Part shown: one piece after another, positions 33,271 to 51,607 of the stretch
How positions within the stretch are numbered: the first letter of the stretch is position 1
Layout of the letters: each line of letters starts with the position of its first letter
DNA from: Kaistia sp.
GTDB taxonomy: Bacteria; Pseudomonadota; Alphaproteobacteria; Rhizobiales; Kaistiaceae
Length of the DNA: 64,000 nucleotides
Reading direction: 5' to 3'
NCBI GenBank assembly: GCA_965229325.1
Contig: OZ245873.1
Coordinates: 914,716 to 978,715, forward strand
Notes under the pieces: generated by a model
The model's database searches: none
What the model was told of the DNA's origin: nothing
The model's input: only the letters and a program-made list of their open reading frames with translations
Program-made: the position numbers and the translations under genes

Positions 33271-34023
33271 ATGCCTCTTTCGATCACGACGACATTGATC
33301 CGCGACGGCGCAAACAATCTAGTCGCTCGCCAGACCGGCGACGTGTCGGGTACCGGCGCGGGCCCGAAGCTCCCGCTGATGCTGCTCGCCACGGCCGATG
33401 GCCTCAATGTGGTGGACCTCCAGGAGTTGCTGACCGATATCGCCGACGCGGTGGCGTCTGGCGCATCGGTGCTGCCGACCGGCGCTGCCACGGATGCCGC
33501 GCTCGCTTCGATCCTCGCCAAGCTCTCGGCCGATCCCGCCACACAGACGACCCTCGCGGCCGTGCTGGCGAAGCTCAATGCCGGCCTGGCGCTCACGGCC
33601 GGCGCGGCTGTCATCGGCAAGATCATCCAGCAGGTCGGCGGCAGCGACGTTTCGGCTAGCAATCCGGTCCCGGTCGGCGGCGCGCAGATCGCCACCGCCA
33701 CCGCCACGATCGCCTCGGGCACCAGCCTCTCGTCCGCCACCGATCTCGGCACCGGCCGGCTGGTCGGCATCATCATCCCCGCCGCATGGACGACGGCGGC
33801 GATCACCTTCCAAGGCTCAGCCGACGGCGTGACCTATTTCGACCTCTACGATGACGCGATCGAACGCACCATCGCTTCCGGCAGCGTCGTCGCCTCGCGC
33901 TTCATCGCTCTCCCGATCGCCGACTGGTTGATGGTGCGGGCTGTGAAGATCCGATCGGGCAGCGCCGCATCGCCGGTCAACCAGCCGGCCGATCGCATCG
34001 TCACGCTCGTCACGGCGCGCTGA
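33271..34023 (+). CDS. Tail-associated structural protein (coiled segment + beta domain)
   Basis: Start MPLSITT; repeated LASILAKL/LAAVLAKL helices; ATIASGTSLS..IPAAWTTAAITFQGS.DG domain. Confidence 0.6.
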   Translation: MPLSITTTLIRDGANNLVARQTGDVSGTGAGPKLPLMLLATADGLNVVDLQELLTDIADAVASGASVLPTGAATDAALASILAKLSADPATQTTLAAVLAKLNAGLALTAGAAVIGKIIQQVGGSDVSASNPVPVGGAQIATATATIASGTSLSSATDLGTGRLVGIIIPAAWTTAAITFQGSADGVTYFDLYDDAIERTIASGSVVASRFIALPIADWLMVRAVKIRSGSAASPVNQPADRIVTLVTAR

Positions 34024-34026
34024 ACC

Positions 34027-36303
34027 ATGTCGACGCTCACCGCCCGAAAGCTGGCGTCGCAGCCCAGCTGGCTGCCGCGCGGGGCCATCGAACACGCTGA
34101 TCTCCTTGCCGGGATCTACTATGCCGGCAAGCGCCGGCGCGCGTCGATCGACGCTCATCTTGCGGCCAGCGGCTGGACCTTCGCTCGCGCTAGCGAGGCG
34201 AGCTACACCAGCGCCTCTGGCCTTTTGGCCTTTGCCGCTGCCAATGCATTGCGCCTCAACTGTGATCCTTCGACCAATACTCCTCTCGGGCTTCTGCTCG
34301 AGGGCTCTCGGACGAACCTCGCCTCGTACACCGAGAGCTTCGACAACGCCTATTGGCCCAAGACAGCGGGCGCAACCGCCGGCGGCATCACCGTCACGGC
34401 GGATGCTGCCGTAGGTCCGGACGGTGCCACCTCGGCCGACAAGATCATCGAGACGACGGGCAACCTCTCTCACTCGATTTTCAAGAGCACGACGTGGACC
34501 GCGACTCCCTTTGCGATGTCGGTCTACATGAAGGCCGGTGAGCGCAACCGAGGCGGCCCCTACTGGTACGACAACGCCGCCGAGCGCAAGTCGTGGTTCG
34601 ACCTTTCGGCCGGCGCCATCTCACCCTCGGGCCTCGGCACCAAGCGCATCTATGCCGCCGCCAACGGATTCTGGCGCTGCATCGTATCTCGCTCGCCCGG
34701 CGCTGGCTCGGGCCGCTTCGGCGTTGCCATCAGCTCCGCCGACAACCAGGCGGTATATGTGGGCGACGGCACGTCCGGCGCCTATGCCTGGGGCATCCAG
34801 ATCGAACCGGACTTCGAAAGCTCTTACATCCGAGAGCTCGCCGGTGGCTCGGCGACGCGCGCGGCCGACAGCCTGATGCGCACCATCGCACAGCCGACAC
34901 GGCTCGCGATCGTGTTCAAAGTGCGGACGCCTGTCGGCGTGCCGAGCGCAGGCAACCAGGTCATCTGGTCGATCGGCGATGCGACCAATGGCATAATGCT
35001 GCGCCGCAGCTCGACGGGTCACGTGTTTCTCAGTGTCTATGCAGGCGGCGCCACCACGGCCAATCTGGATCTCGGCGGCGTCGGCGGTCTCGGCGTGCAC
35101 AAGGTGGCGCTGTCGCATGACGGCACCACCGCCAAGGCCTGCCTCAACGGCGATACGGTCGCCTCGGCGGCCTGTTCGATCCCAACGCTGACCACGATGA
35201 CCGAGCGCCTCGGCTCATCTGCCGCGGGGGAAGGCTGGTTCGGACACCTGCAGAGTTTCACCCGCTTTGCAGCCCTGACCGACGACGCGATGCTCGCCTA
35301 TACGGCGCCGCCCCAGTACATCAACGCTCTGATCGGCATTGACAGCCTCAGCGACCCAGCCAGCACCGGGCTTGGCCGGCCGATCCGCGACATCATGTGG
35401 GGGCGCATCGGCAAGGCGTCGGCCGGCTGGATCCCGCTCATCTTCCCATCCAACGCTCGCGTCGACAGCCTCAACTATTCTGGCGTGTCCAACATCGACC
35501 GCAACACCGCCTTTCCAGGCGATGATCGGACCCTCGACTTCCAAGGACAGCGCTGGCTTAACCCCAATTCGGGCACAGCCATTGCGACCTTCACGCCGCG
35601 CGAGCCCTATGACCAGCTCGACATGATCTATGTGTCCAACCCCGGCGACGGCAGCTTCCGCTTCCAGGCGACCGGCAACGGCACCACGACGGTCGATGCC
35701 AATGCCGCCATCGCCGCGCGCTCCCTGCGTGTCGAGTGCTTCGCAGCGCCCAATGCCGCCGTGCGGTGGGACCAGTTCGTGACGGGCGTCCCTAACACGA
35801 TCGTCGGCGTCAATTTCTCCCGCGCCGGCGCCGGAGGCTTCACATACAACCCGTTCGGCAACGGTGGCTGGAAGGTGCAGTGGCTCGCCGAGATCGACGA
35901 CGCCGCGATGCGCACCATAATCGGCGCGATCAAACCGACGCACTTCCTGTTTAACGGCGGCATGAACGACCGCGTCGACCGCACGGCTGTGCAGTTCGAC
36001 GCCGATTGCCGCAAGGTGCTCGCCAACGTCTTGGCGGCCGCGCCGCGCTGCAAGATCGTCATCTTGCAATCACTTGATCCAGGTCCGGCTGACACCAGCT
36101 ATTTCCAGAGCTACGTGCCGGTCAAACAGCAGATCGCGATCGACTTCCGCTGCCAGTACCTTGACATGCGGACGATCAATGCCAACACGGCCAACTACAC
36201 CCTCGCCAACGCGGCAGGCTACATGCAGGACGGCGTTCATCCGGCGCCCGCATTCAACAGCGGCATCGGGGCGCCCTGGGTCTGCGACAACGTCGCATGG
36301 TAA
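34027..36303 (+). CDS. Tailspike / receptor-binding protein with C-terminal SGNH hydrolase
   Basis: N-terminal GLLLEGSRTNL fibre motif; C-terminal SGNH blocks IGIDS, GNGGW, NGGMND, DGVHP. Confidence 0.8.
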   Translation: MSTLTARKLASQPSWLPRGAIEHADLLAGIYYAGKRRRASIDAHLAASGWTFARASEASYTSASGLLAFAAANALRLNCDPSTNTPLGLLLEGSRTNLASYTESFDNAYWPKTAGATAGGITVTADAAVGPDGATSADKIIETTGNLSHSIFKSTTWTATPFAMSVYMKAGERNRGGPYWYDNAAERKSWFDLSAGAISPSGLGTKRIYAAANGFWRCIVSRSPGAGSGRFGVAISSADNQAVYVGDGTSGAYAWGIQIEPDFESSYIRELAGGSATRAADSLMRTIAQPTRLAIVFKVRTPVGVPSAGNQVIWSIGDATNGIMLRRSSTGHVFLSVYAGGATTANLDLGGVGGLGVHKVALSHDGTTAKACLNGDTVASAACSIPTLTTMTERLGSSAAGEGWFGHLQSFTRFAALTDDAMLAYTAPPQYINALIGIDSLSDPASTGLGRPIRDIMWGRIGKASAGWIPLIFPSNARVDSLNYSGVSNIDRNTAFPGDDRTLDFQGQRWLNPNSGTAIATFTPREPYDQLDMIYVSNPGDGSFRFQATGNGTTTVDANAAIAARSLRVECFAAPNAAVRWDQFVTGVPNTIVGVNFSRAGAGGFTYNPFGNGGWKVQWLAEIDDAAMRTIIGAIKPTHFLFNGGMNDRVDRTAVQFDADCRKVLANVLAAAPRCKIVILQSLDPGPADTSYFQSYVPVKQQIAIDFRCQYLDMRTINANTANYTLANAAGYMQDGVHPAPAFNSGIGAPWVCDNVAW

Positions 36304-37232
36304 TCGCCTGATTGTGTGGCTGATGTCGGCGCGAGACGGGTGACGGGTTGGTAACCAAGCGCCGCCGCCATTGTCCTAGCGAGCTTTCGCGCTCCATCCG
36401 GAGTCGGGTGAATCGTGTCAGCGTAGAATTCCACCGACCAATTGTCAGACGTTGTTGCGAGGTGAACCGTGGCACCTTCGCGCTCAAGGTCATCAAGAGC
36501 TGGGGCCGCGCGATAGTTGCCAGCGATAAAGTCGTCGCGGTGAGAATAAAAAACAACGTCGACCGGTTTTCCGAACCGTGTTGCAACTTCCCTGAACATG
36601 TCGACGTAGGAGGCACGCGGCACGCGGTACTGATCTTTCAAGACCAGCTTGCGCTTGTAGATCCTGCGTATGATAGCTTTCTCAATCACATAGACCAACG
36701 CCGATCGAGGGCGTGATCGAGGATGGGTTAGGTCGGATCGCCATGATGCCGGCGCTCCGAAATCTTCTCTGTTCACAACAAGGACGAGACGCCCAGCTGC
36801 GGCAAGCACGTCCGGGTTGTCAAGAAGGTACTGAAGTTCGTTCTGGAACGCCCAGCTCGGCGTCGAAACTGGCCAGACCATCGTCCCTGTAGCGAATTCG
36901 AGCTGGGGACCAAGCCGTTCAAAGGCGCGATAATTGGTGCCGCCGTAGACTACGCTGTCACCCACCAGGACGATATCGTTACTGCCAGGCTCGAACGGGC
37001 GCCAAGTTCCCATGCTCCGCTCGTTGAACTCCCAAGCGGTGCGGCCAGCGAAAACGCCGATCTGTTGAGGCTTCGGAATATAACCGATGCGTGCATTGGC
37101 GTCGAAAATCGGAAAGTTGATGACGCCGAGCAGACGCAGCGCGAGTTCGGCTGCGGCCACCATCGCGACTGTGCATAGGATAACGATCGCTGCTGTAAGC
37201 ACGTAGGCCCCCTGAAACGTGTTCAACCGCAA
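36237..37232 (-). CDS. Membrane-anchored SGNH/GDSL hydrolase (moron)
   Basis: N-terminal TM helix; VLVGDSVVYG (block I), DTIHPTPDG (block V); visibly more AT-rich; antisense to late operon; TTG start. Confidence 0.8.
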   Translation of the reverse strand: MRLNTFQGAYVLTAAIVILCTVAMVAAAELALRLLGVINFPIFDANARIGYIPKPQQIGVFAGRTAWEFNERSMGTWRPFEPGSNDIVLVGDSVVYGGTNYRAFERLGPQLEFATGTMVWPVSTPSWAFQNELQYLLDNPDVLAAAGRLVLVVNREDFGAPASWRSDLTHPRSRPRSALVYVIEKAIIRRIYKRKLVLKDQYRVPRASYVDMFREVATRFGKPVDVVFYSHRDDFIAGNYRAAPALDDLEREGATVHLATTSDNWSVEFYADTIHPTPDGARKLARTMAAALGYQPVTRLAPTSATQSGDYHATLSQTQGAPMPLLNAGAG

Positions 37233-37563
37233 ACCTACAATTCAGGACGCGCAAATTGCAATCGGCGATTCTCACAAATGAGGCACTAGGTTGTAAGGGG
37301 TACGAATTATCGGATCGATGCACAATTTTGGTGATATTGCCTCTCTGCGGGTTCAACCGACCGTTCAGAGTAGCGCCTTCAGCAGAAATGGTTGCGCCGC
37401 AACAAAGTCCGCCAACCGGCGCGAGAACGATGAGCTGACGCAGGGCTTTTTAATCTGATGCGCTGCACAACCGACGATCGGCCTTTGCCCCGCGGTCCGA
37501 CGCGCGGCCGAGTCTCGAGGTCACCCGTTGCCGATCTCTGCAACTGAACGCTGGGGGAGCAGA

Positions 37564-37695
37564 TCATAGCCCTCCGACCACCCGCCAAAGCGCGACGAGC
37601 GGCGGCACGAACTGCGCCGCAATGATGATCGCAGACAGGATCAATAGCCCGACGGCGAGCAGCCGCTCGGATCGGTTCGGCGATGGATCGCCCAT
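37564..37695 (-). CDS. Possible 43-aa single-TM protein
   Basis: MGDPSPNRSERLLAVGLLILSAIIIAAQFVPPLVALWRVVGGL; weak RBS. Confidence 0.35.
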   Translation of the reverse strand: MGDPSPNRSERLLAVGLLILSAIIIAAQFVPPLVALWRVVGGL

Positions 37696-37819
37696 CCGGG
37701 CAGAGTAGACCATCGGAGCAAGAGCGCCCGCCATTTCGGCGGGGCAGATCATGTGCCTTCTCGCGCGACCGGCGTTTCTAGACAGCCTTTTCTGACATTT
37801 CATCCCCCGGAGACACGAC

Positions 37820-38329
37820 ATGACCGAACCTTCTTGGCTCGCGGTTGCGCGCCGCTATCTCGGCGTCGCCGAGATCAAGGGCCCGCACCACAATCCGACG
37901 ATCCTCAAGATGCTCGACCGCGCCGATGGCAAGGTCGACGGCAAGCCGCTGCAGGGCATCCGCGACGACGAGGTGCCCTGGTGCGCCTCGTTCACCTCGG
38001 CCGTCCTGGAGGAGGTCGGCGTCGTCTCGGCGCGGTCGGCTTGGGCGCGCTCCTATCTCAACTGGGGCAAGGCGCTCAAGCAGGCAGTGCCCGGCGCCAT
38101 CGTCGTGCTCGATCGCGGCCAGGGGCGCGGCCATGTCTTCTTCGCGATCGGCCGTGACGCGCGCGGCAACATCGTCGGCATCGGCGGCAATCAGAAGGAC
38201 GCTGTGACGATCGCCTCCTTCGCGCCTTCGCGCGTGATCGGCATCCGCTGGCCGTCGAACCTCGCCATTCCCGCCGGCGGCCTGCCGCTCGTCTCGAGCA
38301 CCGGCAAGGTCTCGACCAACGAGGCGTGA
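37820..38329 (+). CDS. TIGR02594-family (NlpC/P60-like) putative endolysin
   Basis: PSWLAVARRYLGVAEIKG, DDEVPWCASF (Cys), GHVFF (His), GIGGNQKDAV. Confidence 0.85.
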   Translation: MTEPSWLAVARRYLGVAEIKGPHHNPTILKMLDRADGKVDGKPLQGIRDDEVPWCASFTSAVLEEVGVVSARSAWARSYLNWGKALKQAVPGAIVVLDRGQGRGHVFFAIGRDARGNIVGIGGNQKDAVTIASFAPSRVIGIRWPSNLAIPAGGLPLVSSTGKVSTNEA

Positions 38330-38388
38330 GCCGCGGCTATCGACCCGATGACGGCGGGTGTCCGTCAATCCCATCAGGAGAAACGACT

Positions 38389-38649
38389 ATGAGCACACGC
38401 ATGCGCGCCAAGGTCCGCGTGACGGCCGTCAAGCCGTACCAGCACGGCGAGACCGTCACGCAAGAGACGCTGATCTTCAGCTTCCCGGCCAAAGACAGCC
38501 CCTATCCGGCCGATGGCAGTGACGAGGACCAGCAGTTCGCCAAGTTCTCGCCCGCCGGCGCGCTGACACTGACGGTCGCCAATCCCGCGCTGATCGGCAA
38601 GTTCGCGGTCGGCGACACCTTCTATCTCGACTTCGTGCCGGCCGGCTGA
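38389..38649 (+). CDS. Conserved small phage protein
   Basis: MRAKVRV...EDQQFAKFSPAG.L.LTVANPA....F.VGD.FYLDF.P; AGGAG RBS. Confidence 0.75.
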   Translation: MSTRMRAKVRVTAVKPYQHGETVTQETLIFSFPAKDSPYPADGSDEDQQFAKFSPAGALTLTVANPALIGKFAVGDTFYLDFVPAG

Positions 38650-38713
38650 TCGGCACCGCGGCGCCCGTGCGTCGACACGGGCGCGCAACTCCCCACCATC
38701 CTCGGAGATCATC

Positions 38714-39190
38714 ATGCTTTCTCGCCTTTTCGGCGCGATCACGCTCGCGCTTGCCGTCCTCGTCCTGTCGACGTTTGGCGCCAGCGCCGCCACCGTGGAG
38801 ATTCCAGTCGGCAACTGGGCGGCCACGGCGATCACCTTCGCGTTGCCCTTCGTCGGTGCCGGCGTGATCTGGGTGCTCAACAGGATCCGCGCGCCTTGGG
38901 CCCAGAAGCTGCGGACCGAGGCGGCCGAACAGCTGCTCGCCTATGCAATCAGCTTCGGCTTCAACGCGACCGCCGGCGCCGTGAGGGGCAAGGCGGTCTC
39001 CGTCAATGTCGGCAACGAGGTCGTCGCGCGGGCGCTCGCCTATGCCATCGCCAACGGGCCGGCATGGCTCCTCAAATGGCTGGGCGGCGAAGCCGGCATC
39101 CGCGACAAGATCCTCGCACGCCTGACCGTCCCGGAAGACGCGGCGATCGACGCCGGCAAGATCGTTTCGGCCCCGCCGTCGCAGGCCTGA
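38714..39190 (+). CDS. Membrane protein of the lysis cassette (holin-like)
   Basis: Two N-terminal hydrophobic helices; GGAG RBS; after endolysin. Confidence 0.6.
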   Translation: MLSRLFGAITLALAVLVLSTFGASAATVEIPVGNWAATAITFALPFVGAGVIWVLNRIRAPWAQKLRTEAAEQLLAYAISFGFNATAGAVRGKAVSVNVGNEVVARALAYAIANGPAWLLKWLGGEAGIRDKILARLTVPEDAAIDAGKIVSAPPSQA

Positions 39191-39249
39191 TCAGCGGACA
39201 GCGGCGACAGGCACTGGCTGCCGCTGGCATTTCCTACCAGAGAGCTCAC

Positions 39250-39492
39250 ATGAACATCGATGCGATCATCCAGCAGTATGGTCCGCAGGGGCTGATGATC
39301 GGCGCGCTGCTGCTTGCATGTCGCCATCTCTGGGCAAAGCTCGCCGAATGCCAGGAAAAGCGGATCGCCGAACTCCGCGAGACGTTGGTGGTGATGGCGG
39401 CGTCGACCGCCGCGGCGCAGGCCGTCGCGGCTGGTCTTGCGGCATTGAAGGTGGCGATCGAGCAGCGATCGCAAGGAGGACATGGATCATGA
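39250..39492 (+). CDS. Single-TM coiled-coil protein (lysis cassette)
   Basis: QYGPQGLMIGALLLAC TM followed by heptad-rich helix. Confidence 0.6.
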   Translation: MNIDAIIQQYGPQGLMIGALLLACRHLWAKLAECQEKRIAELRETLVVMAASTAAAQAVAAGLAALKVAIEQRSQGGHGS

Positions 39493-39746
39493 CCATGATG
39501 AAGACCATCTGGGCGAGGATCCGGAGTGCGCTTGTCGGCCGGTCGCAGCGCGCTCGCGACGCCGAGGAGGATGCACTGCGACGCGAGATCGTCGGCCTCG
39601 GCGAACAGCATGCGGAGGCGGTCCAGCAGATCAGCCTCGGCTGTGAATTCCTGACGCGCTTCGTGCGCGAGGGCGCCCCCAGATCCAGCGCTCCGTCGCC
39701 ACGACGCCGAGGACCCCGTAGTTCCGGGCGCACCCAGCCGGCCTGA
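39489..39746 (+). CDS. Hypothetical protein
   Basis: ATGA-coupled to previous ORF. Confidence 0.45.
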   Translation: MTMMKTIWARIRSALVGRSQRARDAEEDALRREIVGLGEQHAEAVQQISLGCEFLTRFVREGAPRSSAPSPRRRGPRSSGRTQPA

Positions 39747-39809
39747 GCCCTTGTCAGCCGGTGCCGCGCTGGTGCCCTGACTGTACGATCATCCGCATTT
39801 ATTGCGCGA

Positions 39810-40070
39810 TCACCGTGCCATCGGCCCGGTCGGCGTCACCGGACTGATCCGGATCGACGTGTTGTAGGATCGACATGCGCTCACGCCGCAGCGGAGCGCC
39901 CTCCCGCCGATCCTGGCTGGCCCGATATCGGCCGAGCCCTGCACGCGCGCCTCGGCGCCGAGTTCCACTGCCATCGCCTCGAGGTCGATCTCCCGCGAGT
40001 GCTTGCACCGCTCGCAATAGGCGGAGACCGAGTAGCGGCCGACGATCAGCTTGCCGAGAGTCGAGGTCAC
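39810..40070 (-). CDS. Small Zn-finger protein (CxxC...CxxxxC), candidate SOS-induced antirepressor
   Basis: YCERCKH and LRCGVSAC motifs; GTG at 40070 overlaps the stop of the upstream mini-ORF (alternative start 40091). Confidence 0.65.
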   Translation of the reverse strand: MTSTLGKLIVGRYSVSAYCERCKHSREIDLEAMAVELGAEARVQGSADIGPARIGGRALRCGVSACRSYNTSIRISPVTPTGPMAR

Positions 40071-40138
40071 GGCGAAGCGCCGCGGATCCACGCCCGATCC
40101 GATTTCGTGCGACAGCGGCGCGATAGCCGATCGCTCAC
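40067..40138 (-). CDS. 23-aa basic leader ORF
   Basis: AAGGAG RBS 7 nt before GTG; MSDRLSRRCRTKSDRAWIRGASP; GTGA-coupled to the Zn-finger ORF. Confidence 0.45.
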   Translation of the reverse strand: MSDRLSRRCRTKSDRAWIRGASP

Positions 40139-40190
40139 GGGCTCTCTCCTTCGAGGCGGCGCCAGATCGCGTCCGCCGTCATCGTTCACT

Positions 40191-40205
40191 GTTCCTCTTT
40201 CGTTC
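40191..40205. promoter_or_regulatory. Alphaproteobacterial LexA (SOS) box
   Basis: GTTC-CTCTTTC-GTTC = GTTC-N7-GTTC; extra GTTC at 40184 and 40208; TTGACG on the minus strand at 40224-40219. Confidence 0.75.
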
Positions 40206-40317
40206 ACGTTCCCGAGGCCGTCAAGCCTCGCGGGCGCGACCGCACTTGCCGGCGACCGCCTGCCGGCCCAACTGCCGACCCCGCGCCACCGGGCGGCGAG
40301 CAGCAAGAGTGCTGAAA

Positions 40318-40830
40318 ATGACCGAGACCACCCTCCCCGCCTTCGCCGATGACGAGGCCTGCGCGACGGCGATCGGCCGCATGGGCGAGATCGATCGCGA
40401 CCTCGCCTTGATCGAGGCAACGAAGTCCGAGGCGATGCAGAAGGCCGCGGCCACGGCCGAGACGGCGGCCGATCCGCTGATCGCCGAGCGCGCCGACCTC
40501 TTCGCGAAGGTCAAGGCCTATTGCGAGGCGCACCGGACCCGCCTCACCGATGGCGGACGCAGCAAGACGGCGACGTTCACCGCCGGCACGGCCGCATGGA
40601 AGCTCGGGCGCCTTCGCGTCGTCGTCGACACGGTGCTCAAGGACAAGGTCATCGCCCTCCTCAAGAAGCGCGGGCTCGCCGAACTCGTCCGCACCAAGGA
40701 AGACATCGACGTGACCGCGGTCGGCAAGGCGCGCGACAAGGTCAAGGGGATCAAGGGCCTCTCCTTCGTCGAACCGACCGAGGATTTCTCAGTCAGTCCG
40801 ATCTCGGCCGAGCTGGCGCCCCGTCTCTAG
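40318..40830 (+). CDS. gam: Host-nuclease inhibitor Gam (Mu Gam family)
   Basis: AIGRMGEIDRDL..IE, KAYCEAHRTRLTDGGRSKTATFTAGTAAW, VRTKEDID. Confidence 0.88.
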   Translation: MTETTLPAFADDEACATAIGRMGEIDRDLALIEATKSEAMQKAAATAETAADPLIAERADLFAKVKAYCEAHRTRLTDGGRSKTATFTAGTAAWKLGRLRVVVDTVLKDKVIALLKKRGLAELVRTKEDIDVTAVGKARDKVKGIKGLSFVEPTEDFSVSPISAELAPRL

Positions 40831-41047
40831 GCCGTCGCTCCCGGGCGACGCGATCATGCAGCGCCGCGCCACCCGCGCGGCGCGGCCACACGAACCCGGC
40901 TGGCGCAACAGCGCCGGCCGAGCCCCGTGCAGCGGGGGCCGGGCAAAGCCCGGCAGGCGGGACGCCATGAGCAAATGTGACCCGCCCCGACGCCTCCAAG
41001 GATAACGCCGCCCCGCCAAGTCGGAGCGTGCCTATCCCGAGTTGAAA

Positions 41048-41851
41048 ATGTCTGAAGATCAATTCCGCGTCGTTCCCACAGCGCGGCCCGTCGCCGGCTA
41101 TGTCGGCGGCAAGAAGCAGCTCGCCGGCCGCCTAGCCCAGATGATCGAGGCGACGCCGCATGACCTCTATGGCGAGGTGTTCGCCGGCATGGCGGGCGTC
41201 TTCTTCCGCCGGCGCCGCGCGCCCAAGGTCGAGGTGCTGAACGACATCAGCCGCGACGTCATCACCTTCTTCCGCGTGCTGCAGAACCACTACCAGGCGC
41301 TGACCGACATGCTGAAATGGCAGCTGTCGTCGCGCGCCGAGTTCGAGCGTCTCGTCGGCCAGGATCCCGAGCGGCTCACCGACCTGCAACGCGCCGCGCG
41401 GTTCCTCTTCCTTCAGCGCCTCTCCTTCGGCGGCAAGGTCCAAGGCCGCACCTTCGGGATCGATTCCCGTGGCCCCGCCCGGTTCAATGCCGTCGCGCTC
41501 GAGGAGACGCTCGCCGCCGCGCATGAGCGGCTTGCCGGCGTCTGGCTGGAGTGCCTGCCATGGGAGGAGATGCTGAGCCGCTGGGACCGCCCCGGCGCGC
41601 TCTTCTTCCTCGATCCGCCCTATCGCGGCACCGAGACCTACTACGGCAAGGGCCTCTTCGCGGCCGAGGATTTCGGTCGCCTCGCCGAACGGCTCTCAAC
41701 CCTCAAGGGTCGGTTCATCCTGACGATCAACGACCACCCCGACACCCGCTCGGTCTTCGCGCGCTTCCTCATCGAGGAGGCGACCGTCACCTATACGACT
41801 GGCGGCGGCTCTCAGAAGACAGGCCAGGGCGAACTGATCATCAGCAGCTGA
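41048..41851 (+). CDS. Dam-like (D12 class) N6-adenine methyltransferase
   Basis: YVGGKKQLA, EVFAGMAGVF, LNDIS, FFLDPPY motifs. Confidence 0.93.
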   Translation: MSEDQFRVVPTARPVAGYVGGKKQLAGRLAQMIEATPHDLYGEVFAGMAGVFFRRRRAPKVEVLNDISRDVITFFRVLQNHYQALTDMLKWQLSSRAEFERLVGQDPERLTDLQRAARFLFLQRLSFGGKVQGRTFGIDSRGPARFNAVALEETLAAAHERLAGVWLECLPWEEMLSRWDRPGALFFLDPPYRGTETYYGKGLFAAEDFGRLAERLSTLKGRFILTINDHPDTRSVFARFLIEEATVTYTTGGGSQKTGQGELIISS

Positions 41852-43207
41852 TCAGGCGCGGCGCGGCGGCCAGTTGATCTCGCGAGGTCCGTCGGGGAGC
41901 TCGCGGACCTCGCCCGGCCTGAGGCCGAGGAGATAGGACTCCGTCTCCGGAGGCAGGTCGAACGATGCAACCAATGGAGTGCGGAGGCCGATTGCCATGA
42001 CGTGATCACGCGCCATTTGGCGCAGCCTATGCGTGTCAAATCCCTCGATTTGCCTGAGCATCCGGCGGGCGACCTCTAGTGCTGCTCCGGGGGCGCGGCA
42101 CCCTAACTGCGTCTCAAGGCGACTAACCTCTGTCGCGGTCAGTGGCTGCATCCGGGCAAATGCCGTGGCAGCCGCTTGCAGAACAGGTTCCGGCGGCCTC
42201 TGGTTCGAGGCCGCCCGGATCTGGGCGACTTCGAAGCGGGGCACCTCATCGCTGTGATAGAACTGCGGGAAAGGTCGGCGCGCGATCTCCATCGTTGCGA
42301 TGCGGACGCCGTTCGATCGAATACCGTAGATTCGGCTGACGCCCGAGAAGACATCGTCCCAATAGCTGCCGACGCAGTGCGTAAGCGCACTGCCCTCCTC
42401 GAAAAGCTCCGCCCGCGTGCGCAGCGCGACGAACTCGAAGCCGTCGACATCAAGGCGTAGCGGCAGATCGCCATAGTCGGCGACGCATTGGTCTTCGGCT
42501 GCGTCCCGCCGCGCCTTTTCCGTCGCCAGCTCCTCATGCCAGCGCCGCGCCGCGGCCAAGGCCTCCTGCAGCGACCAGCGGACATCGAGCATGCCCGGCG
42601 AACGCCACAGATAGTCGGCAACCGCGTCGACATCGCGTGACACTTCTTCAGCCAGAATCCCCACACTGAAAGGCCCGCTCACGCCCCCGAGCGCTCGCAA
42701 CGCCTCATGGCCGATCGCACCGACGGCCCATTGGCGATAGTCCTCCGGCCATTGTCCGCGAGAAAAGCGAGATATCTCGCGCAAGAAATACTCCTGGTGC
42801 AGCCTGCTCCCATTCAGAACCTGCCCGAGCACAGACGGATCGCTTCGGGCGAGAATCACCAATTCTGTATGCCACTGCGGCCCTACCACTCCCGGCCGCA
42901 GCAACCGCATGGGCAACGGCAAGCCGATCGCAGCCATCACGGTCTTGAGCTTGCGGCCGTCGGCGAGGATCGACCGGAACCGGCGCTCCACGGCATTCCC
43001 CATGCCGACAAAGCTCCGCCGTTGCGTATTGTCCGGGGAGACCTGGCGCGCAAGGCCCCAGGCAATGATCGGCGCTTGCTCGAGATAGTCCGCGCCGTAA
43101 GGGTCGGCGCGCGCGATCCGATAGGCGACGCGACGAAGAAAAGCGTCGTCATACTGATTGATCGCCCTGCCGATCGCGCTCGCCATCCAATCCTTCCCGC
43201 CCGTCAT
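41852..43207 (-). CDS. PcfJ-domain protein
   Basis: FEFVALRTRAELFEEGSALTHCVGSY...IATMEI; ATGA-coupled to rep gene. Confidence 0.85.
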   Translation of the reverse strand: MTGGKDWMASAIGRAINQYDDAFLRRVAYRIARADPYGADYLEQAPIIAWGLARQVSPDNTQRRSFVGMGNAVERRFRSILADGRKLKTVMAAIGLPLPMRLLRPGVVGPQWHTELVILARSDPSVLGQVLNGSRLHQEYFLREISRFSRGQWPEDYRQWAVGAIGHEALRALGGVSGPFSVGILAEEVSRDVDAVADYLWRSPGMLDVRWSLQEALAAARRWHEELATEKARRDAAEDQCVADYGDLPLRLDVDGFEFVALRTRAELFEEGSALTHCVGSYWDDVFSGVSRIYGIRSNGVRIATMEIARRPFPQFYHSDEVPRFEVAQIRAASNQRPPEPVLQAAATAFARMQPLTATEVSRLETQLGCRAPGAALEVARRMLRQIEGFDTHRLRQMARDHVMAIGLRTPLVASFDLPPETESYLLGLRPGEVRELPDGPREINWPPRRA

Positions 43208-44286
43208 CCCCGTCCTCCCGCCGCGCGCCGCTGGCCCGCGCTGGCCAGCGCCTCGGCCACGAGCTGGGCCGGCGCCCAGCATCCGGCCTCACCCGGCGGT
43301 GGCCCCATCGCCGGCCGCCAGCGCGCCCAGTCCGGCCATGCCCGCTGGTCCGCGCCCTTTTCGCGCACCATCCGCCCGAAGATCTCGAGCGGCTTTCGCC
43401 AGTGCTCGAGGTCGGCTGTCCGCCAGTCGATCACCCTCCCCTCGCCAGCTGCCTTCTTCGCCGCGGGCGATGCCGGGCGAGTCCTTCGCTTGCGCTGGTC
43501 GAGGATCGCGCCCTCGAAATAGCGCAGCGATGTCGGCAGCTGGCCGTTCTGCCGCGCCAGCACGACGGCAACGCCGTCGCGGATCTCCGTTGCGGAGAGC
43601 CCGCCATCGAGCCACCCCCTCACCACGCCGAGATCGTCGCGATACCCGGCCGGTGCTCCGGCCCGCTCGCAGATCCACCGATGCAGGTCGACCGCCTCGT
43701 CGGTGTTCACTGCCTTCCGGGCACGATCCCTCTCCTCCCCGAAATCGACCAGAGCGGCAGCGGCAGCAGCCCCGGCCGTCTCGCTCGCCGGCGCCGGCGG
43801 TGCAGCTGCAGCTGCTGTCTGGATTCTGGCTTCTGGCTTCTGGGGGATAGGGTCCCTATCCTCCGACCTATCGGCCGCGGCAGGTTCGGCGGCCGGTGTC
43901 TCCGCCGAAGCGCCGATGGCGGGCTGATCCTTCTTCTTCCCCCAGCGCTTCGTGACCGCCTCGCGGCCGGCATCGCTCTGCCGCGCCTCCTCGAGGATCC
44001 GGCGGCTATAGATCCGCCCTTCATCGTCACGCGAGAACACCCCCGCGGTTTCGAGCTCGTCCAGGAGGCCGAGCAGCTCGTCCTCGCCGACGCCGCCGGC
44101 GACACGCATCAGCTGCGCCGTCGTCATCGGCCTTCCGTCGATCGCGAGATAGCCGGCCGGCTGCATCTCCTGCATGATGCAGACGCACCGCATCCAGAGC
44201 CCCTGCGCCGCGAGCGAGCAGAGGCCGAGCCGCGGATCCCCCAGCCAGTCCGTGCAGTAGAACTTGATCCAGACCTTGCCGCTCAT
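43204..44286 (-). CDS. Phage replication initiation protein
   Basis: WIKFYCTDWLGDPRLGLCSLAAQGLW N-terminal wHTH pattern, YSRRILEE, QKPEAR repeat-coded linker. Confidence 0.8.
   Translation of the reverse strand: MSGKVWIKFYCTDWLGDPRLGLCSLAAQGLWMRCVCIMQEMQPAGYLAIDGRPMTTAQLMRVAGGVGEDELLGLLDELETAGVFSRDDEGRIYSRRILEEARQSDAGREAVTKRWGKKKDQPAIGASAETPAAEPAAADRSEDRDPIPQKPEARIQTAAAAAPPAPASETAGAAAAAALVDFGEERDRARKAVNTDEAVDLHRWICERAGAPAGYRDDLGVVRGWLDGGLSATEIRDGVAVVLARQNGQLPTSLRYFEGAILDQRKRRTRPASPAAKKAAGEGRVIDWRTADLEHWRKPLEIFGRMVREKGADQRAWPDWARWRPAMGPPPGEAGCWAPAQLVAEALASAGQRRAAGGRG
43817..43860. repeat. Candidate origin: tandem heptamers + palindrome inside rep
   Basis: GTCTGGA/TTCTGGC/TTCTGGC/TTCTGGG (43817-43844) and GATAGGG-T-CCCTATC (43846-43860). 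Confidence 0.55.
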
Positions 44287-44546
44287 GGTGCGAGGCCCCT
44301 GCGTGGCGGCGGCGCCGCCAGTTCCATCAGGATCCGGCGAATGTCCTGCCGGGAGAGGTTGACCGCGGCCTCGACGGAGCGCGGCGTGCAGCAGAGCGGC
44401 TTCGAGACACGCCGCCCGCCCCGCTCGACGACCAGCTTCGGATGCCGACCGCCGGTGACGAGCGCGCAGGTCGCGCCCTGCGCGGCGCAGTCCCGGCGCG
44501 CCGCGGCGAAGATCAGGCGAATGTGCTTGGCGAGGCGTCCTGACAT
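44283..44546 (-). CDS. Small basic phage protein
   Basis: 87 aa, GGRHPKL..CTPRS motif; coupled to rep. Confidence 0.55.
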   Translation of the reverse strand: MSGRLAKHIRLIFAAARRDCAAQGATCALVTGGRHPKLVVERGGRRVSKPLCCTPRSVEAAVNLSRQDIRRILMELAAPPPRRGLAP

Positions 44547-46459: not shown

Positions 46460-46527
46460 GTCGGTTGTCCGGTCGGTTGGAGGGACGGCGGATGGTCAGC
46501 GCGTCGGCGCGTCTCTGGGCACGGAAG

Positions 46528-46579
46528 CGCACGAAATCGTGCGAATGTGCTTGCACACCGCACGAAGTCGTGCGATAGT
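46528..46579 (+). promoter_or_regulatory. hicAB sigma70 promoter with two palindromic operators
   Basis: TTGCAC(46551)-17 bp-GATAGT(46574); CGCACGA-NN-TCGTGCG at 46528-46543 and 46559-46574. Confidence 0.8.
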
Positions 46580-46604
46580 CCTTGCATTGAAACGGAGACG
46601 GGAG

Positions 46605-46799
46605 ATGACGCGAGACCAGCTCATTCAGGAGCTTCGGAAGCTGGCCCGGAAAGAGGGCAAGGACTTCGAAGTCTTCACGAACAAGGGCAAGGGGTCTCAC
46701 TACCGGGTGCGGTTCGGCGGCGCGATGACGACAGTCAAGGGCGGCGAAATGACCCCGGGTTATGTGAGGCTCATCAAGAAGCAGCTGGGGATCAACTGA
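46605..46799 (+). CDS. hicA: HicA-family toxin
   Basis: 64 aa, GKGSH motif, GGAG RBS. Confidence 0.88.
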   Translation: MTRDQLIQELRKLARKEGKDFEVFTNKGKGSHYRVRFGGAMTTVKGGEMTPGYVRLIKKQLGIN

Positions 46800-46862
46800 T
46801 CCCCAGCCCTTCCTCGCAAGGTCTCTCCCGTCGATGCGTTGGAGCCCAAGGAGGGGCAGAGC

Positions 46863-47297
46863 ATGGACTATATCTATCAGGCCCGGTTCGAGCCGGATCC
46901 GGACGGCGGCTTTCTCGTGACGTTCCCCGACGTCCCGGAGGCGATCACCCATGGCGCGACGATGGACGAAGCCAGGGCGAGCGCCGCCGAGGCGCTCGGC
47001 CTCGCGCTGCGCGGCATCGTCCAGGCCGGCGGCGCCGTCCCGCCGGCGCGCGCCTATCGCGGCGGCCGCGACACGGCGATCGCGGTCCCGGCCGACGACG
47101 CGCTGAAGCTCGCCGTCATCGAGGCCTTCCGTGCTGCAGGAATCACGAAGTCCGAACTCGCCCGCCGGCTCGGCAAGGGCGAGAACGAGGCGCGCCGGAT
47201 CCTCGACCCGGACTATCCCTCGAAGCTCGAGATGCTGTCGGCCGCGCTGGCCGCGCTCGGCCGCACGGTCGTGATCTCCGTCCGGGAGGCGGCATAG
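46863..47297 (+). CDS. hicB: HicB-family antitoxin
   Basis: GGFLVTFPDVPEAITHG.T.DEA; C-terminal HTH KSELARRLG...RRILDP. Confidence 0.92.
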   Translation: MDYIYQARFEPDPDGGFLVTFPDVPEAITHGATMDEARASAAEALGLALRGIVQAGGAVPPARAYRGGRDTAIAVPADDALKLAVIEAFRAAGITKSELARRLGKGENEARRILDPDYPSKLEMLSAALAALGRTVVISVREAA

Positions 47298-47300
47298 ATC

Positions 47301-48089
47301 TTGAGCGAACCCGCGAGGACTATATCGATCAAGACGTTCCGCCTCTGGGTCGCAGTGGTGGCTCTGATGCTTGCCCTTGTAGTGGCCGGATGGAAGTGGC
47401 CGACTTTCATCGAGCAAATCGATCGCTGGCAGACCCTGATAACAGGCATCCTCGCGCTCATTGTCGGGTTTCTGACGATCACGCGCATCGACCACCAGAT
47501 AGCAGAGACCCGCCTTGAGCAGGAACGCAGCCGGCGCGCAATGATCGCGGGCCAGAATCAGCCCGCGATTGAAAGGATCAATCTGATCGGTCTGGCTGTC
47601 GCCAGCTTTCGCGACCGGCTCAGATCGGTGGGCGACAATGCAACGTGGAAGCTCCGGGATACCGTGACCGAGGAGCTGCACCTTAATCGACAACGATACT
47701 TCGACCTCGAAGAGGTAGAGGCCTACTATCTGGCTCGATTTCGGGTGTTGGCACTTGCCGACCGATTCTTCAGCGACAGCGACCAAGAAACGACGCCGAA
47801 GGCCAAGCGGCACCTGGACGCGATCGAGGAGACCGCCATCCTCACGAGCCTGCTGCGCGACATGGCCCTGCTGCTCGGCGAGGGCTACACCCTGCGAGAG
47901 CTGAGCAAGCTCACGAGCCGTCAGATTGCCGAAGCTGCTCATGATATCCGACCGCCGCGTGAAAACTGGCTTCTTGCTTTGCGCCCTTCTCCGGGCGGAC
48001 CCTCTGCCGGCGCCTCCCAACCCCAGACCTCCCAGCCCGGCCGGGCCCGGCGGGCGTTGAGCTCGATCTTCGGCAGCGTCGGGAAATAG
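47301..48089 (+). CDS. Two-TM moron protein of unknown function
   Basis: Two N-terminal TM helices, WQTLITGILAL pattern; AT-richer; overlaps the MT-A70 3' end. Confidence 0.6.
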   Translation: MSEPARTISIKTFRLWVAVVALMLALVVAGWKWPTFIEQIDRWQTLITGILALIVGFLTITRIDHQIAETRLEQERSRRAMIAGQNQPAIERINLIGLAVASFRDRLRSVGDNATWKLRDTVTEELHLNRQRYFDLEEVEAYYLARFRVLALADRFFSDSDQETTPKAKRHLDAIEETAILTSLLRDMALLLGEGYTLRELSKLTSRQIAEAAHDIRPPRENWLLALRPSPGGPSAGASQPQTSQPGRARRALSSIFGSVGK

Positions 48090-49661: not shown

Positions 49662-49913
49662 TCACACCATGCCCAAGGCTTCTTTGTAGAGATCGAGGAT
49701 CGCGTCCTGTTCCTCGCGCTCGCTCGCATCCTGCTTGCGGAGGCGGATCACGGTCCGCAGCACCTTCGTGTCGTAGCCGTTGCCCTTGGCCTCGCCGTAG
49801 ACGTCCTTGATGTCGTCGCCGATCGCCTTCTTCTCCTCCTCGAGGCGCTCGATCCGCTCGACGATGGAGCGCAACTGCGCGGCGGCGACGCCCTGGACGT
49901 CCGTGTTGCTCAT
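49662..49913 (-). CDS. DUF2312 (GapR-like) DNA-binding protein
   Basis: [63 protein letters not shown]. Confidence 0.95.
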
Positions 49914-50425
49914 GACGCCGACCGCCGCTTGAAGAGGATGATCGGATCCGCGCCGGAACTGTTGATGCTGTCGTGGACAGCATCGCCGCGATCCTGGAGG
50001 GCGCTCACCTTCTGGGCGATCTGCTGCTTCTCGGACGGAGAGATGACGCCGTCAGCCGCGGCCCTGTTGATGGTGTCATAGGCATCGAGGGCCGCCTGGC
50101 CGAGGCCGATCTGCGATTCGACGAAGTCGGCGCCGCCGCCGCTGGGACCGCCGCGGGCCGACAGCCGCGCGATGATGTCGGTGTAGTCGGTCGCGCCAGT
50201 CTCGCGCTGGAGCGCAATCGCCGCGACCGCCGGAATGATGTCCGGCTTGTTGTTGTCGCGATACGCGTTGAGCCGGGTGATCGAGCGGCCGCAGATCCGC
50301 GCAGCCCGATCGAGAGTTCCGGCTCGATCCGTCAGGTCGCGGGTCGCGCCCTTGATCGCATAGAACCACTCGGCCGGGATTGGCCCGGCATCCTCCCTGT
50401 CGGAATCACTCTGGCCGGCTGCCAT
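49910..50425 (-). CDS. CII-like regulatory protein
   Basis: Position downstream of cro; [23 protein letters not shown]...Y HTH-like; [11 protein letters not shown]. Confidence 0.55.
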
Positions 50426-50569
50426 GGAACACCTGCGGTTGGCAATGAGGGGGCGGCCCGGAAAAAGGCGGTCGCCTTTTCCGGTGAAGTCAAAGCTCGG
50501 AACTGGGAGAAGAGGTCGTCCCGCTTGCCTACGGAGGGCCTGTCACATGCCTGTCGCTGCCACGAACCA

Positions 50570-50848
50570 TCAGAGCCTCCGCTCTTCGCCGGCGAGGCCC
50601 GAAAGCGTCTCTTCCGGGATCGCGCCCGCCATGCGGGCCGCTTGCTCGGCAGAGAATGGCGGCGCTGCAGGCGGCGATGCGCCGCCGGAAGACCGCCGCC
50701 GCGCATCAAACGATGCCCTCGTGACGGCCACGAGGATTTGGATCTCTACGTTCCGTTTCAGACGGGAGATTGCCCGCGCAAGAAGGATCACCGCGACCGT
50801 CAGTGCGACGATGGAGACCGATTGGATGTGGTCGATCCACACGTTCAT
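50570..50848 (-). CDS. Small single-TM protein
   Basis: GAGG RBS; SVSIVALTVAVILLA TM. Confidence 0.5.
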   Translation of the reverse strand: MNVWIDHIQSVSIVALTVAVILLARAISRLKRNVEIQILVAVTRASFDARRRSSGGASPPAAPPFSAEQAARMAGAIPEETLSGLAGEERRL

Positions 50849-51000
50849 GCATACCTCAGGAAAATCGCGAAAAGTCGAACGTTTTCAGCGACATGGCGGT
50901 GACCATGATGCCTACAATCCGTTGAAAATGCGATGCAACTTGCGGGAAGCTGTTCGTCCGGCCGGAAAGTCTGGCCGAGGAACAGTGGGAACGCAGGAAG

Positions 51001-51267: not shown

Positions 51268-51272
51268 GTGCC

Positions 51273-51512: not shown

Positions 51513-51520
51513 GGCAACGC

Positions 51521-51548
51521 TGTTACCATGCTGGAAACATTCGGTCAA
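51521..51548 (-). promoter_or_regulatory. pR with operator TGTTTCC-N5-GGTAACA
   Basis: Minus strand TTGACC-gaa-TGTTTCC-AGCAT-GGTAACA; weaker copies at 51555-51573 and 51579-51597. Confidence 0.75.
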
Positions 51549-51607
51549 CCTGCTTGGTTCCGGATTGGGTGACGCGCATGTTTCCAGCGTGGCCTAAACT
51601 GCCAAGC

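Follow-up and report, generated by a model that had tools for sequence, protein, structure and literature searches.

The zinc-ribbon locus of the window (the whole stretch of DNA analysed, 64,000 nucleotides of a Kaistia contig) is best explained as an accessory cassette in a lambdoid prophage, inducible by the SOS response and with a cellular role in the DNA-damage response rather than that of a repressor-specific antirepressor. We assign this reading a probability of roughly 0.6. The zinc-ribbon protein of the prophage looks like the product of a phage-carried SOS-response gene rather than a demonstrated prophage-induction switch. The cassette comprises the following features.

40184-40211: putative LexA operator region with four GTTC/GAAC half-sites; canonical GTTC-N7-GTTC at 40191-40205
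40219-40224, minus strand: candidate -35 element (TTGACG) for leftward transcription of the zinc-ribbon gene
40146-40150, minus strand: Shine-Dalgarno AGGAG, 7 nt ahead of the mini-ORF start codon
40067-40138, minus strand: leader mini-ORF of 23 codons (VSDRLSRRCRTKSDRAWIRGASP), GTG at 40138, TGA at 40069-40067
39810-40070, minus strand: predicted Cys4 zinc-ribbon protein (ZnF) of 86 aa, the prophage-borne family member

The original prediction described a perfect GTTC-N7-GTTC with extra GTTC half-sites and a leftward TTGACG, all of which are present at these positions. The two tetramers of the direct repeat are separated by the spacer CTCTTTC, and the extra half-sites lie at 40184-40187 and 40208-40211; further N7 boxes built from these two half-sites were rejected for their poor partner tetramers. 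In the host genome, GTTC-N7-GTTC is found upstream of lexA, uvrA/ssb, dnaE, imuA, comM, ruvC and a radical-SAM gene. A weight matrix was trained on these seven host SOS sites and used for a genome-wide scan (~10 million positions). The extended window box scored 21.4 bits and ranked 15th, compared with 23.8 bits for the lexA box, 22.1 bits for ruvC and 20.3 bits for recA (rank 18). In strength, the window box is level with the recA, lexA and ruvC boxes. The real genome contains 14 sites of at least 21.4 bits vs. ~0.8 per third-order Markov simulation. Outside the tetramers, the window box resembles the host SOS boxes in the T before the first GTTC and in the T-rich spacer, whereas the base 3' of the second GTTC is A in the window box and T or C in all the training sites. 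In Caulobacter, a GTTCttgttatGTTC box is located at ccna_01391 as well as ccna_02355, which are early SOS genes. The GTTC-N7-GTTC motif has been confirmed as an SOS motif in Caulobacter (PMC12700426). Judged from score and rank, the region 40184-40211 is a credible host LexA operator, which upholds the earlier assignment of the motif as a LexA site.

A chance match without a regulatory role, next to small ORFs that are not expressed, is a highly improbable account of the motif. The bare GTTC-N7-GTTC is not enriched above expectation in the window (three occurrences vs. 1.43 expected, and at least three in 20 of 100 shuffles), and about one site of such a score occurs per simulated genome. However, the box is conserved in a sister phage, a paralog of the zinc-ribbon gene (76% identity, in a second prophage of the same genome) has an independent box that ranks 17th genome-wide, boxes are strongly associated with the family as a whole, and the zinc-ribbon ORF carries a coding signature.

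The A-rich spacer of the box places GAAAGA (40201-40196) 17 bases past TTGACG as a candidate, weak -10 element. Thus, the box would cover the -10 and start region of the leftward promoter. The original prediction had the box drive the pair of mini-ORF and Zn-finger gene. Two homologous loci match the window in the -35, the spacing of 17 nt and the geometry of the box (TGGACG-N17-AAAAAT at the paralog and TTGACG-N17-AAATGT at locus L039 of genome G116). A generic promoter scan of the locus found no sigma-70 consensus promoter, so the leftward promoter is one that we infer. The distance from the start of the box to the zinc-ribbon start codon is 121 nt. Within this leader, the TGA of the mini-ORF overlaps the GTG of the zinc-ribbon gene (40070-40068) as GTGA, and a separate ribosome-binding site is lacking for the zinc-ribbon gene. 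From this arrangement, the mini-ORF is most likely a translational-coupling device.

Comparison with the sister phage (in the related genome G116), which is syntenic and has a different immunity, showed that the near-identical box, the leader and a coupled mini-ORF are kept there, whereas the cargo is a highly diverged member of the family. The sister-phage mini-ORF has 15 codons, the same VSDRL start and an ATGA overlap with its own zinc-ribbon gene, and GAGGAG stands at the position of the AGGAG of the window. Conservation of the mini-ORF sequence ends after five codons. The 23-aa ORF, the AGGAG and the GTGA coupling described earlier are thus all present, and the arrangement recurs at the orthologous sister-phage locus. 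Another genome (G076) has a 57-codon ORF coupled by ATGA, and the paralog has no such mini-ORF but its own GGAG instead. A 15-codon ORF (ATG at 40182, ending on the mini-ORF start) was rejected as unconserved and without a ribosome-binding site. The leader RNA folds no better than its shuffles (z = 0.36), and a Rfam search of 39000-41000 returned only sub-threshold noise. No intrinsic terminator was found 3' of the zinc-ribbon gene, where structure is weak (z = -1.9) and a T-run is missing; the single terminator-like site in the terminator scan is irrelevant to the locus.

The 86-aa ORF with CxxC and CxxxxC knuckles noted originally is a real gene, with a third-position GC of 0.86 vs. 0.60-0.62 at codon positions 1 and 2 and with homologs of the same length (85-87 aa). 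Because the homologs start at a matching MTSTLGKL, the 86-aa start is favoured over the 93-aa start at GTG 40091, which was rejected. The cysteines are arranged as C19xxC22 and C61xxxxC66, and A17, C19, C22, G38, C61, C66 and P77 are invariant in the two alignments examined (A2 and A4). An AlphaFold2 model has a mean pLDDT of 84. The protein has the family traits of ~80-95 aa, two Cys pairs with a helix between them, an N-terminal (T)LGxL and an LDL after the first knuckle; the second knuckle is CxxC in most family members. Searches of Pfam, PHROGs and NCBIfam assigned neither the protein nor its relatives to a family, lax E-values included. Fold searches gave no match in the PDB (best E 0.59) and one in BFVD, an unnamed 87-aa viral protein (E 2.7e-4). 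A tblastn search gave no hit among 50,697 phage records, and scans with patterns of the close subfamily found no relative in IMG/VR and only a Kaistia MAG in GTDB. A DksA/TraR-type finger was rejected as no model matched, and an Ogr/Delta late activator was rejected for its different cysteine spacing and the lack of a Pfam Ogr_Delta match (E up to 5).

Of the alphaproteobacterial genomes sampled, about 15% (51 of 308 genera) carry the family, which is found on prophages, chromosomes and plasmids. In the order Hyphomicrobiales, 9 of the 30 family loci are preceded within 350 nt by a box scoring 17.7 bits or more, a score that no site reaches in ~87 kb of the remaining flanks. The class-level figure is 20 of 29 loci, for boxes of 19 bits or more in the 170 nt upstream. 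About a third of the class-level loci have no box, nor do the closest homologs, in genomes G308, G191 and G156. The strong predicted LexA boxes often belong to a chromosomal site beside DUF2794 and gcrA. In this group the neighbourhood is der-bamB-TPR_21-DUF2794-ZnF-gcrA/CSD, the boxes lie 43-68 nt before the start, the neighbours are conserved and no prophage is nearby; 10 of the 29 class-level loci are linked to DUF2794. A profile built from the chromosomal members only recovered the paralog (E 2.5e-6) and the window protein (E 5.6e-6) as the top of 55,810 six-frame ORFs, with the next at 0.47. The host has DUF2794 (3.74 Mb) and gcrA, and no chromosomal family member either beside DUF2794 or elsewhere. 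The window copy lies inside a prophage, outside the DUF2794-ZnF-gcrA neighbourhood, and is therefore a mobile, divergent member of the family rather than an ortholog of the core group. Taken from these predicted boxes, the family is probably an unrecognised member of the alphaproteobacterial SOS regulon, one that has been repeatedly picked up by phages and plasmids. To our knowledge, and within the literature searched, it has not so far been included or named among SOS genes, and no description of an SOS-regulated zinc-ribbon protein was found for Caulobacter or other alphaproteobacteria.

As an accessory cassette, the locus would work as follows. In an undamaged lysogen, host LexA would occupy the box, which reads GAAC-N7-GAAC on the coding strand (40205-40191). 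RecA-stimulated self-cleavage of LexA after DNA damage is an established pathway, and it would free the promoter. The resulting transcript would carry the 23-codon leader ORF with its strong AGGAG and a stop overlapping the zinc-ribbon start. Since these two frames overlap in GTGA and the zinc-ribbon gene lacks its own ribosome-binding site, termination-reinitiation is probably how the protein is made, as the sequence and the same arrangement in the sister phage suggest. The product is a diverged copy, carried by the phage, of a small Cys4 zinc-ribbon protein that is predicted to be LexA-controlled in many alphaproteobacteria. Thus, its likeliest role would be the family's own function in the DNA-damage response, which it may exert through binding to a conserved partner in the cell. 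The prophage would supply the protein to a host without a chromosomal copy, in parallel with the LexA-controlled dinI copies in enterobacterial prophages. Assigning it the function of the chromosomal copies would be an extrapolation over ~30% identity.

The box is also close to a divergent gene, and the prophage genes that bear on its interpretation are listed below.

40318-40830, plus strand: Mu Gam-like gene (Pfam PF07352, E 2.6e-26), divergent from the shared intergenic region
39250-39492 (80 aa) and 39489-39746 (85 aa), plus strand: last two small late-operon genes, convergent on the zinc-ribbon gene; 82% nucleotide identity with the sister phage
51608-51928, plus strand: candidate repressor of 106 aa, Pfam HTH_3 only
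51273-51548, minus strand: second small HTH gene, divergent from 51608-51928

The gam ATG is 113 nt downstream of the box, which may co-regulate gam. The original prediction offered control of gam on the other strand in the alternative. That the box acts chiefly on rightward gam-dam transcription and is adjacent to the zinc-ribbon gene incidentally is improbable. The stretch between the box and gam is the part of the locus best conserved between the sister phages (92-93% at 40224-40343 vs. 72-90% inside gam), the sister phage retains the box together with gam, and divergent SOS promoters with one common box exist in the host (uvrA/ssb). However, the sister-phage copy is the only one of 16 gam homologs elsewhere with a box upstream, and none of the 15 others in the order has a promoter-positioned box within 1.5 kb upstream. 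Boxes of the zinc-ribbon family occur in many contexts without gam. Furthermore, no recognisable rightward promoter lies over the box. The sole -35-like element, TTGCCG, is ~45 nt downstream, so that the box would sit upstream of a rightward promoter. These comparisons assign the box to the zinc-ribbon gene.

The candidate repressor was said to lack a self-cleaving peptidase domain, and this holds: it contains HTH_3 only, and a six-frame search of the window found no Peptidase_S24 domain. As a counterpoint to the accessory cassette, the only strong LexA site in the window is found in a prophage without a self-cleaving repressor, which is the known setting of antirepressors.

The original prediction took the Zn-finger protein for a new type of antirepressor, which under LexA control would bind the 106-aa HTH-only repressor and induce the prophage as Tum, AntC and GfoA/GfhA do. 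We consider this fairly unlikely, although the locus combines a LexA box, a site outside the immunity region and a non-cleavable repressor. The zinc-ribbon gene is located ~11.5 kb from the HTH genes of the immunity region, a separation also seen in the Gifsy phages, 186 and N15 (PMC3121763), and the matrix scan found no other site of at least 14 bits within the prophage part of the window. There is no S24 gene near either of the zinc-ribbon-bearing prophages of the genome. The repressor counterpart of the sister phage (119 aa, 28% identity) is also HTH-only; there, immunity and zinc-ribbon cargo both differ and the LexA leader is conserved. Small antirepressors unrelated in sequence exist even with a cleavable cI (PMC10432266).

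However, the distribution of the family neither tracks non-cleavable repressors nor co-varies with the repressor, and only the pair formed by the window and the G116 sister phage fits. Even for this pair the co-variation with immunity is weak evidence, because the two phages are also unlike in seven further segments. HTH+Peptidase_S24 repressors lie 8-43 kb from zinc-ribbon homologs of 49-72% identity in six prophages (G374, G272, G116 at 2.78 Mb, G308, G193 and G191). Close homologs thus reside in prophages with self-cleaving repressors, which leaves the antirepressor idea unsupported. The 72% identical G308 copy has no LexA box, which counts against an antirepressor because an unregulated one would be incompatible with lysogeny; it is also not accompanied by a relative of the window repressor. 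The prophage of the 76% paralog shares nothing else with the window prophage, and the 106-aa repressor has no relative elsewhere in the genome, the paralog's prophage included. In addition, the family comprises vertically arranged SOS genes on chromosomes, away from any prophage, as well as plasmid copies, and the protein shows no similarity to a known antirepressor family in Pfam, PHROG, NCBIfam or the PDB. A combination of both roles is unlikely: the family would be an undescribed SOS effector, widely conserved in alphaproteobacteria, that was co-opted as a LexA-controlled antirepressor in the lineage of the window prophage and its G116 sister, as an exchangeable cargo that follows a fixed LexA leader and matches the immunity type of each phage. 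The accessory cassette with a cellular role remains the preferred reading, in which the box and the zinc-ribbon gene are the only visible SOS link of a prophage whose repressor is unable to self-cleave.

The locus can be compared with several known systems. Caulobacter SidA is an SOS-induced small division inhibitor, a 29-aa membrane protein without cysteines, and illustrates the kind of action open to a small SOS effector. Like SidA, the zinc-ribbon protein is a small alphaproteobacterial protein whose only regulation would be by LexA (known for SidA and predicted here); unlike SidA, it is soluble, basic and predicted to bind zinc. The operator type and score range are those of the alphaproteobacterial SOS regulon (lexA, recA, uvrA, ssb, ruvC, comM, dnaE, imuA), and the family behaves as a member of this regulon in many genera, whereas the window copy is phage-borne unlike the listed genes. 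The CxxC ... CxxxxC pattern in a small phage protein is reminiscent of P2 Ogr and P4 Delta, in which the spacing is CxxC-x22-CxxxxC rather than the 38 residues of the window protein.

The closest parallels come from LexA-controlled prophage operons. The Salmonella Gifsy-1/2/3 prophages carry LexA-controlled dinI-antirepressor-irsA operons (Lemire et al. 2011, PMC3121763). As in Gifsy, a host LexA box lies on the promoter of a small-gene cassette away from the immunity region, the prophage repressor is not self-cleaving, and a small ORF as the first cistron precedes the effector. The zinc-ribbon protein also appears to be a host SOS gene product copied into prophages, as dinI is. However, it has no relation in sequence or fold to DinI, GfoA, GfhA or GftA, its relatives occur on chromosomes and in prophages with cleavable repressors, and repressor binding is hypothetical here. 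The window box is an alphaproteobacterial direct repeat, whereas the Gifsy box is a gammaproteobacterial palindrome. Tum of 186 and AntC of N15 resemble the locus in having a single predicted LexA-repressed promoter far from the immunity region and a non-cleavable repressor. Unlike Tum (146 aa, half of it DinI-like), the window protein is an 86-aa Cys4 zinc ribbon without similarity to it.

TF-smORF induction modules are driven by an activator independently of SOS, and the small proteins that they encode act by inactivating cI (Silpe et al. 2023, PMC10432266). Similar to these modules, the locus is a small unannotated gene between the late genes and other modules, and a 47-aa HTH gene is divergent from the zinc-ribbon gene at the paralog and at G116 L039; unlike them, it would be controlled by LexA repression. 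The regulatory logic is not new, because LexA-controlled prophage genes are known (dinI copies, tum and the Gifsy antirepressors). The novelty is the protein, a Cys4 zinc-ribbon family without a Pfam, PHROG or NCBIfam model or a solved fold, and study of this family could reveal a new DNA-damage effector, for example one that arrests the cell cycle, modulates repair or induces prophages.

The zinc-ribbon gene, an 86-codon ORF on the minus strand, is preceded by a predicted LexA box and a short leader ORF. The elements read from the sequence are:

40224-40219, minus strand: TTGACG, candidate -35 hexamer
40191-40205: LexA box, GTTC-CTCTTTC-GTTC
40184 and 40208 (starts): additional GTTC tetramers
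40150-40146, minus strand: AGGAG
40138 (GTG) to 40069-40067 (TGA), minus strand: 23-codon ORF
40070 (GTG) to 39810, minus strand: zinc-ribbon ORF, 86 aa, with CxxC and CxxxxC

The original prediction had named a perfect GTTC-N7-GTTC with extra half-sites, a leftward TTGACG, an AGGAG and a 23-codon ORF overlapping the start of an 86-aa CxxC/CxxxxC protein, and all of these are present. The arrangement is well supported, from sequence comparison, as a LexA-repressed promoter that would drive a leader mini-ORF coupled to the zinc-ribbon gene. Gene models beyond the automated calls relied on a third-position GC filter; the third-position GC of the 86-aa ORF (0.86, in a genome of 67% GC) matches the coding signature of the genome. 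The homologs (85-87 aa) start at the equivalent MTSTLGKL, indicating that the assigned start is right.

GTTC-N7-GTTC is an established operator type of the Alphaproteobacteria (PMC12700426). The bare pattern shows no enrichment within the window (3 observed vs. 1.43 expected), and the case for the box must therefore rest on other evidence. In the host genome (4.997 Mb, single contig), the pattern with a T-rich spacer is found at lexA, uvrA/ssb, dnaE, imuA, comM, ruvC and a radical-SAM repair gene. A weight matrix of 22 columns, trained on these seven host SOS sites only, gave the window box 21.4 bits, the 15th-highest score in the genome when both strands are counted (lexA 23.8, ruvC 22.1 and recA 20.3 bits). 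Sites of at least 21.4 bits number 14 in the real genome vs. 0 or 1 in each of five third-order Markov simulations. The predicted host LexA regulon comprises uvrA/ssb, dnaE, a glyoxalase-type protein, a radical-SAM protein, imuA, comM, ruvC, a 425-aa protein, a 101-aa unknown and an AbrB/MazE-like 83-aa gene (sites on the host contig C1 at 1168844, 1387355, 1942527, 1966733, 2836276, 3323028, 3404000, 4144878, 4531929, 4532515, 1905024 and 1929451). Two near-identical boxes (CATGTTCCTATTTTGTTCTC) lie ~24 kb apart in C1, at 1.905 and 1.93 Mb, the latter upstream of a 73-aa ORF.

Four lines of evidence from sequence comparison (the paralog, a common promoter geometry, the association across the family and the gam homologs) point to the zinc-ribbon gene as the gene that the box probably serves. 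A six-frame profile search found exactly two family members in the host genome; the second is a paralog of 76% identity, carried at 4.61 Mb by a prophage that has nothing else in common with that of the window, and has its own box (rank 17) ~20 nt before the start codon. Searches of 401 genomes of the order returned 30 family loci; in 9 of them the 350 nt upstream include a box scoring 17.7 bits or more, and the remaining ~87 kb of flanks contain none of that score; the genome-wide site rate predicts ~0.05 boxes in these 30 upstream regions, a figure for the order-level set alone. The class-level searches (401 genomes) returned 29 further loci, and in 20 of these a box scoring 19 bits or more lies no farther than 170 nt upstream. 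The alternative that the box controls the divergent Mu Gam-like gene gam on the other strand is disfavoured, as only one of 16 gam homologs in other genomes (301 genomes of the order) has a box, and that one is the G116 sister-phage copy. The non-coding stretch from the box to the gam start (40224-40343) is 92-93% identical between the sister phages vs. 72-90% over most of gam itself. Searches of this stretch gave no promoter, no Rfam family and no stable fold; the gam promoter or some other regulatory element could lie there.

A TTGACG-like hexamer, 17 nt and then the A-rich box spacer are common to the window, the paralog and the G116 homolog L039, so that the box would cover the -10 and start region. 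The leftward promoter under the box is predicted only from this hexamer and spacing geometry, because the generic promoter scan gave no consensus match. The stop codon of the mini-ORF overlaps the GTG of the 86-aa ORF. The paralog and L039 each have a ribosome-binding site (GGAG or GGGGAG), but the window gene lacks one; the simplest reading would thus be that its translation is coupled to that of the mini-ORF. Similarly, in G076 the box stands ahead of a 57-codon ORF (MEPAPFAPPIDEVEDYIREAGGTWHAVRQLLDEVALLTAECEANQRATSAGYVRRRPS; L010, G076:C21, upstream of 437576) that is itself ATGA-coupled to the family gene; this ORF has no Pfam match.

The gam locus with a box in G116, at 575 kb, belongs to a syntenic relative of the entire window prophage, of the same genus and with different immunity (window 11407-58646 vs. 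G116:C1:556965-604130, L073-L076; 70-90% nucleotide identity), which makes it a useful comparator for every feature of the window prophage. Window segments without similarity to it are about 33273-39222, 39746-40125, 41839-42890, 43835-44493, 46463-48007, 49913-50884 and 51173-52887, the last being the immunity region. The box (AATGTTCCTCTTTCGTTCACGT, one change), the box-to-gam stretch, gam and dam are kept. Segment 39750-40163 is replaced by one coding for an 88-aa family member, which scores 26 bits against the family profile and whose first knuckle carries an insertion of 11 residues. This gene is preceded by GAGGAG and a 15-codon ORF, which shares its first five codons (VSDRL) with the window mini-ORF and ends in ATGA on the zinc-ribbon start. 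Since these elements are kept while the family member is replaced, the LexA operator, leader and coupled mini-ORF are, as judged from the two prophages, a conserved slot with a cargo exchangeable within one protein family. Two small plus-strand genes ending the late operon after a 158-aa membrane protein (38714-39190), namely 39250-39492 (80 aa, with a hydrophobic segment) and 39489-39746 (85 aa), were missed by the simple third-position GC filter, yet show 82% conservation in the sister phage and may have a spanin-like accessory role in lysis.

The zinc-ribbon protein has no match among Pfam, PHROG or NCBIfam models. AlphaFold2 predicted a confident small fold, a helix flanked by two cysteine knuckles (mean pLDDT 84); a fold search of the PDB returned nothing similar (best E 0.59), and one unnamed viral protein in BFVD resembles the model. 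Because the protein is short, a profile search of 1.84 billion representatives returned only 19 short relatives. Of 401 alphaproteobacterial genomes searched, 59 (51 of 308 genera) encode a member of the family. A search with a typical member retrieves hundreds of protein clusters, none with a Pfam domain and the named ones all 'hypothetical'. The profile also matched 5-10 separate stretches in each of three large proteins (P0006, P0010 and P0011; 601, 943 and 1935 aa), which suggests that such proteins also contain the knuckle-helix unit in tandem copies.

Members of the core group of the family share a chromosomal location with conserved neighbours (der, bamB, a TPR_21 protein and DUF2794 on one side of the zinc-ribbon gene, gcrA or a cold-shock gene on the other) and have excellent LexA boxes, which lie 43-68 nt ahead of the start; 10 of the 29 class-level loci are DUF2794-linked. 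This neighbourhood recurs in diverse Alphaproteobacteria (metagenome contigs L106, L109 and L110; L078-L100), with a very strong box (24-35 bits) between DUF2794 and the zinc-ribbon gene. A chromosomal-only profile ranked the two prophage genes first among 55,810 six-frame ORFs of the host (E 2.5e-6 and 5.6e-6; next 0.47). The host has DUF2794 and gcrA, and the six-frame profile search found no chromosomal family member in it. Together, the boxed core group and the profile ranking indicate that the window gene looks like a divergent, phage-borne copy of a seemingly unrecognised SOS-regulon gene.

The original prediction went further, proposing the zinc-ribbon protein as a new type of LexA-controlled antirepressor of the window prophage. 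As it had noted, the CI-like repressor has no self-cleaving peptidase domain: the 106-aa product of 51608-51928 has HTH_3 only, its divergent partner is a second small HTH gene (51273-51548), and no Peptidase_S24 domain is found in the window or near the paralog. Moreover, the window contains no strong LexA site other than the zinc-ribbon box. The arrangement resembles that of phages 186, N15 and Gifsy (PMC3121763), a likeness counted in favour of the antirepressor. The sister-phage repressor is likewise HTH-only (119 aa, 28% identity), and immunity region and zinc-ribbon cargo both differ; however, seven other segments also differ, so that this co-variation is weak evidence. Typical HTH+S24 repressors, moreover, lie near the family gene in six prophages of other genomes: at 8 kb in G374, where a P22-type portal also adjoins the family gene, at 12.7 kb in G272, where it sits between terminase and portal homologs, at 31 kb in G116 (2.78 Mb), at 32 kb in both G308 and G193 and at 43 kb in G191, with membership of the same prophage deduced from late-gene direction for the 30-43 kb cases. 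The G308 copy, 72% identical, lies at a prophage end beside a tRNA fragment and has no box; no relative of the window repressor occurs near the paralog, in G308 or in G191; and neither the plasmid copies of Mesorhizobium nor the members of the chromosomal group lie in prophages. An antirepressor function is thus not supported. Since small antirepressors can also occur as extras in phages with a cleavable cI (PMC10432266), the observations reduce the probability of the proposal without bringing it to nil; we consider it unlikely.

Within the immunity region, the 106-aa HTH gene is directly followed on the opposite strand by a gene (51929-52735, minus strand) for a membrane protein of 268 aa whose N-terminus has a GYF_2 domain; this could be a lysogen-expressed exclusion gene. 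Besides lexA, C1 has two further HTH+S24 (LexA/UmuD/cI-like) genes (4297585-4297935 and 2732209-2571). The type at 2.73 Mb recurs in G116 and G156 (~E 1e-22) and G308 (~1e-20), and may therefore be a chromosomal LexA-like regulator, not a phage repressor.

In the paralog prophage (L001 5796-5939) and G116 L039 (G116:C1, ~2.7797 Mb), a 47-aa helix-turn-helix gene diverges from the zinc-ribbon gene across a common LexA-box intergenic region, a pair reminiscent of regulator and small-protein modules; the window has no such gene, and gam occupies its place. A phage-borne copy of a conserved uncharacterised SOS effector, rather than an antirepressor, is the better-supported view, and as a phage-borne copy of an SOS gene the window zinc-ribbon gene has an analogue in the dinI copies that enterobacterial prophages carry.
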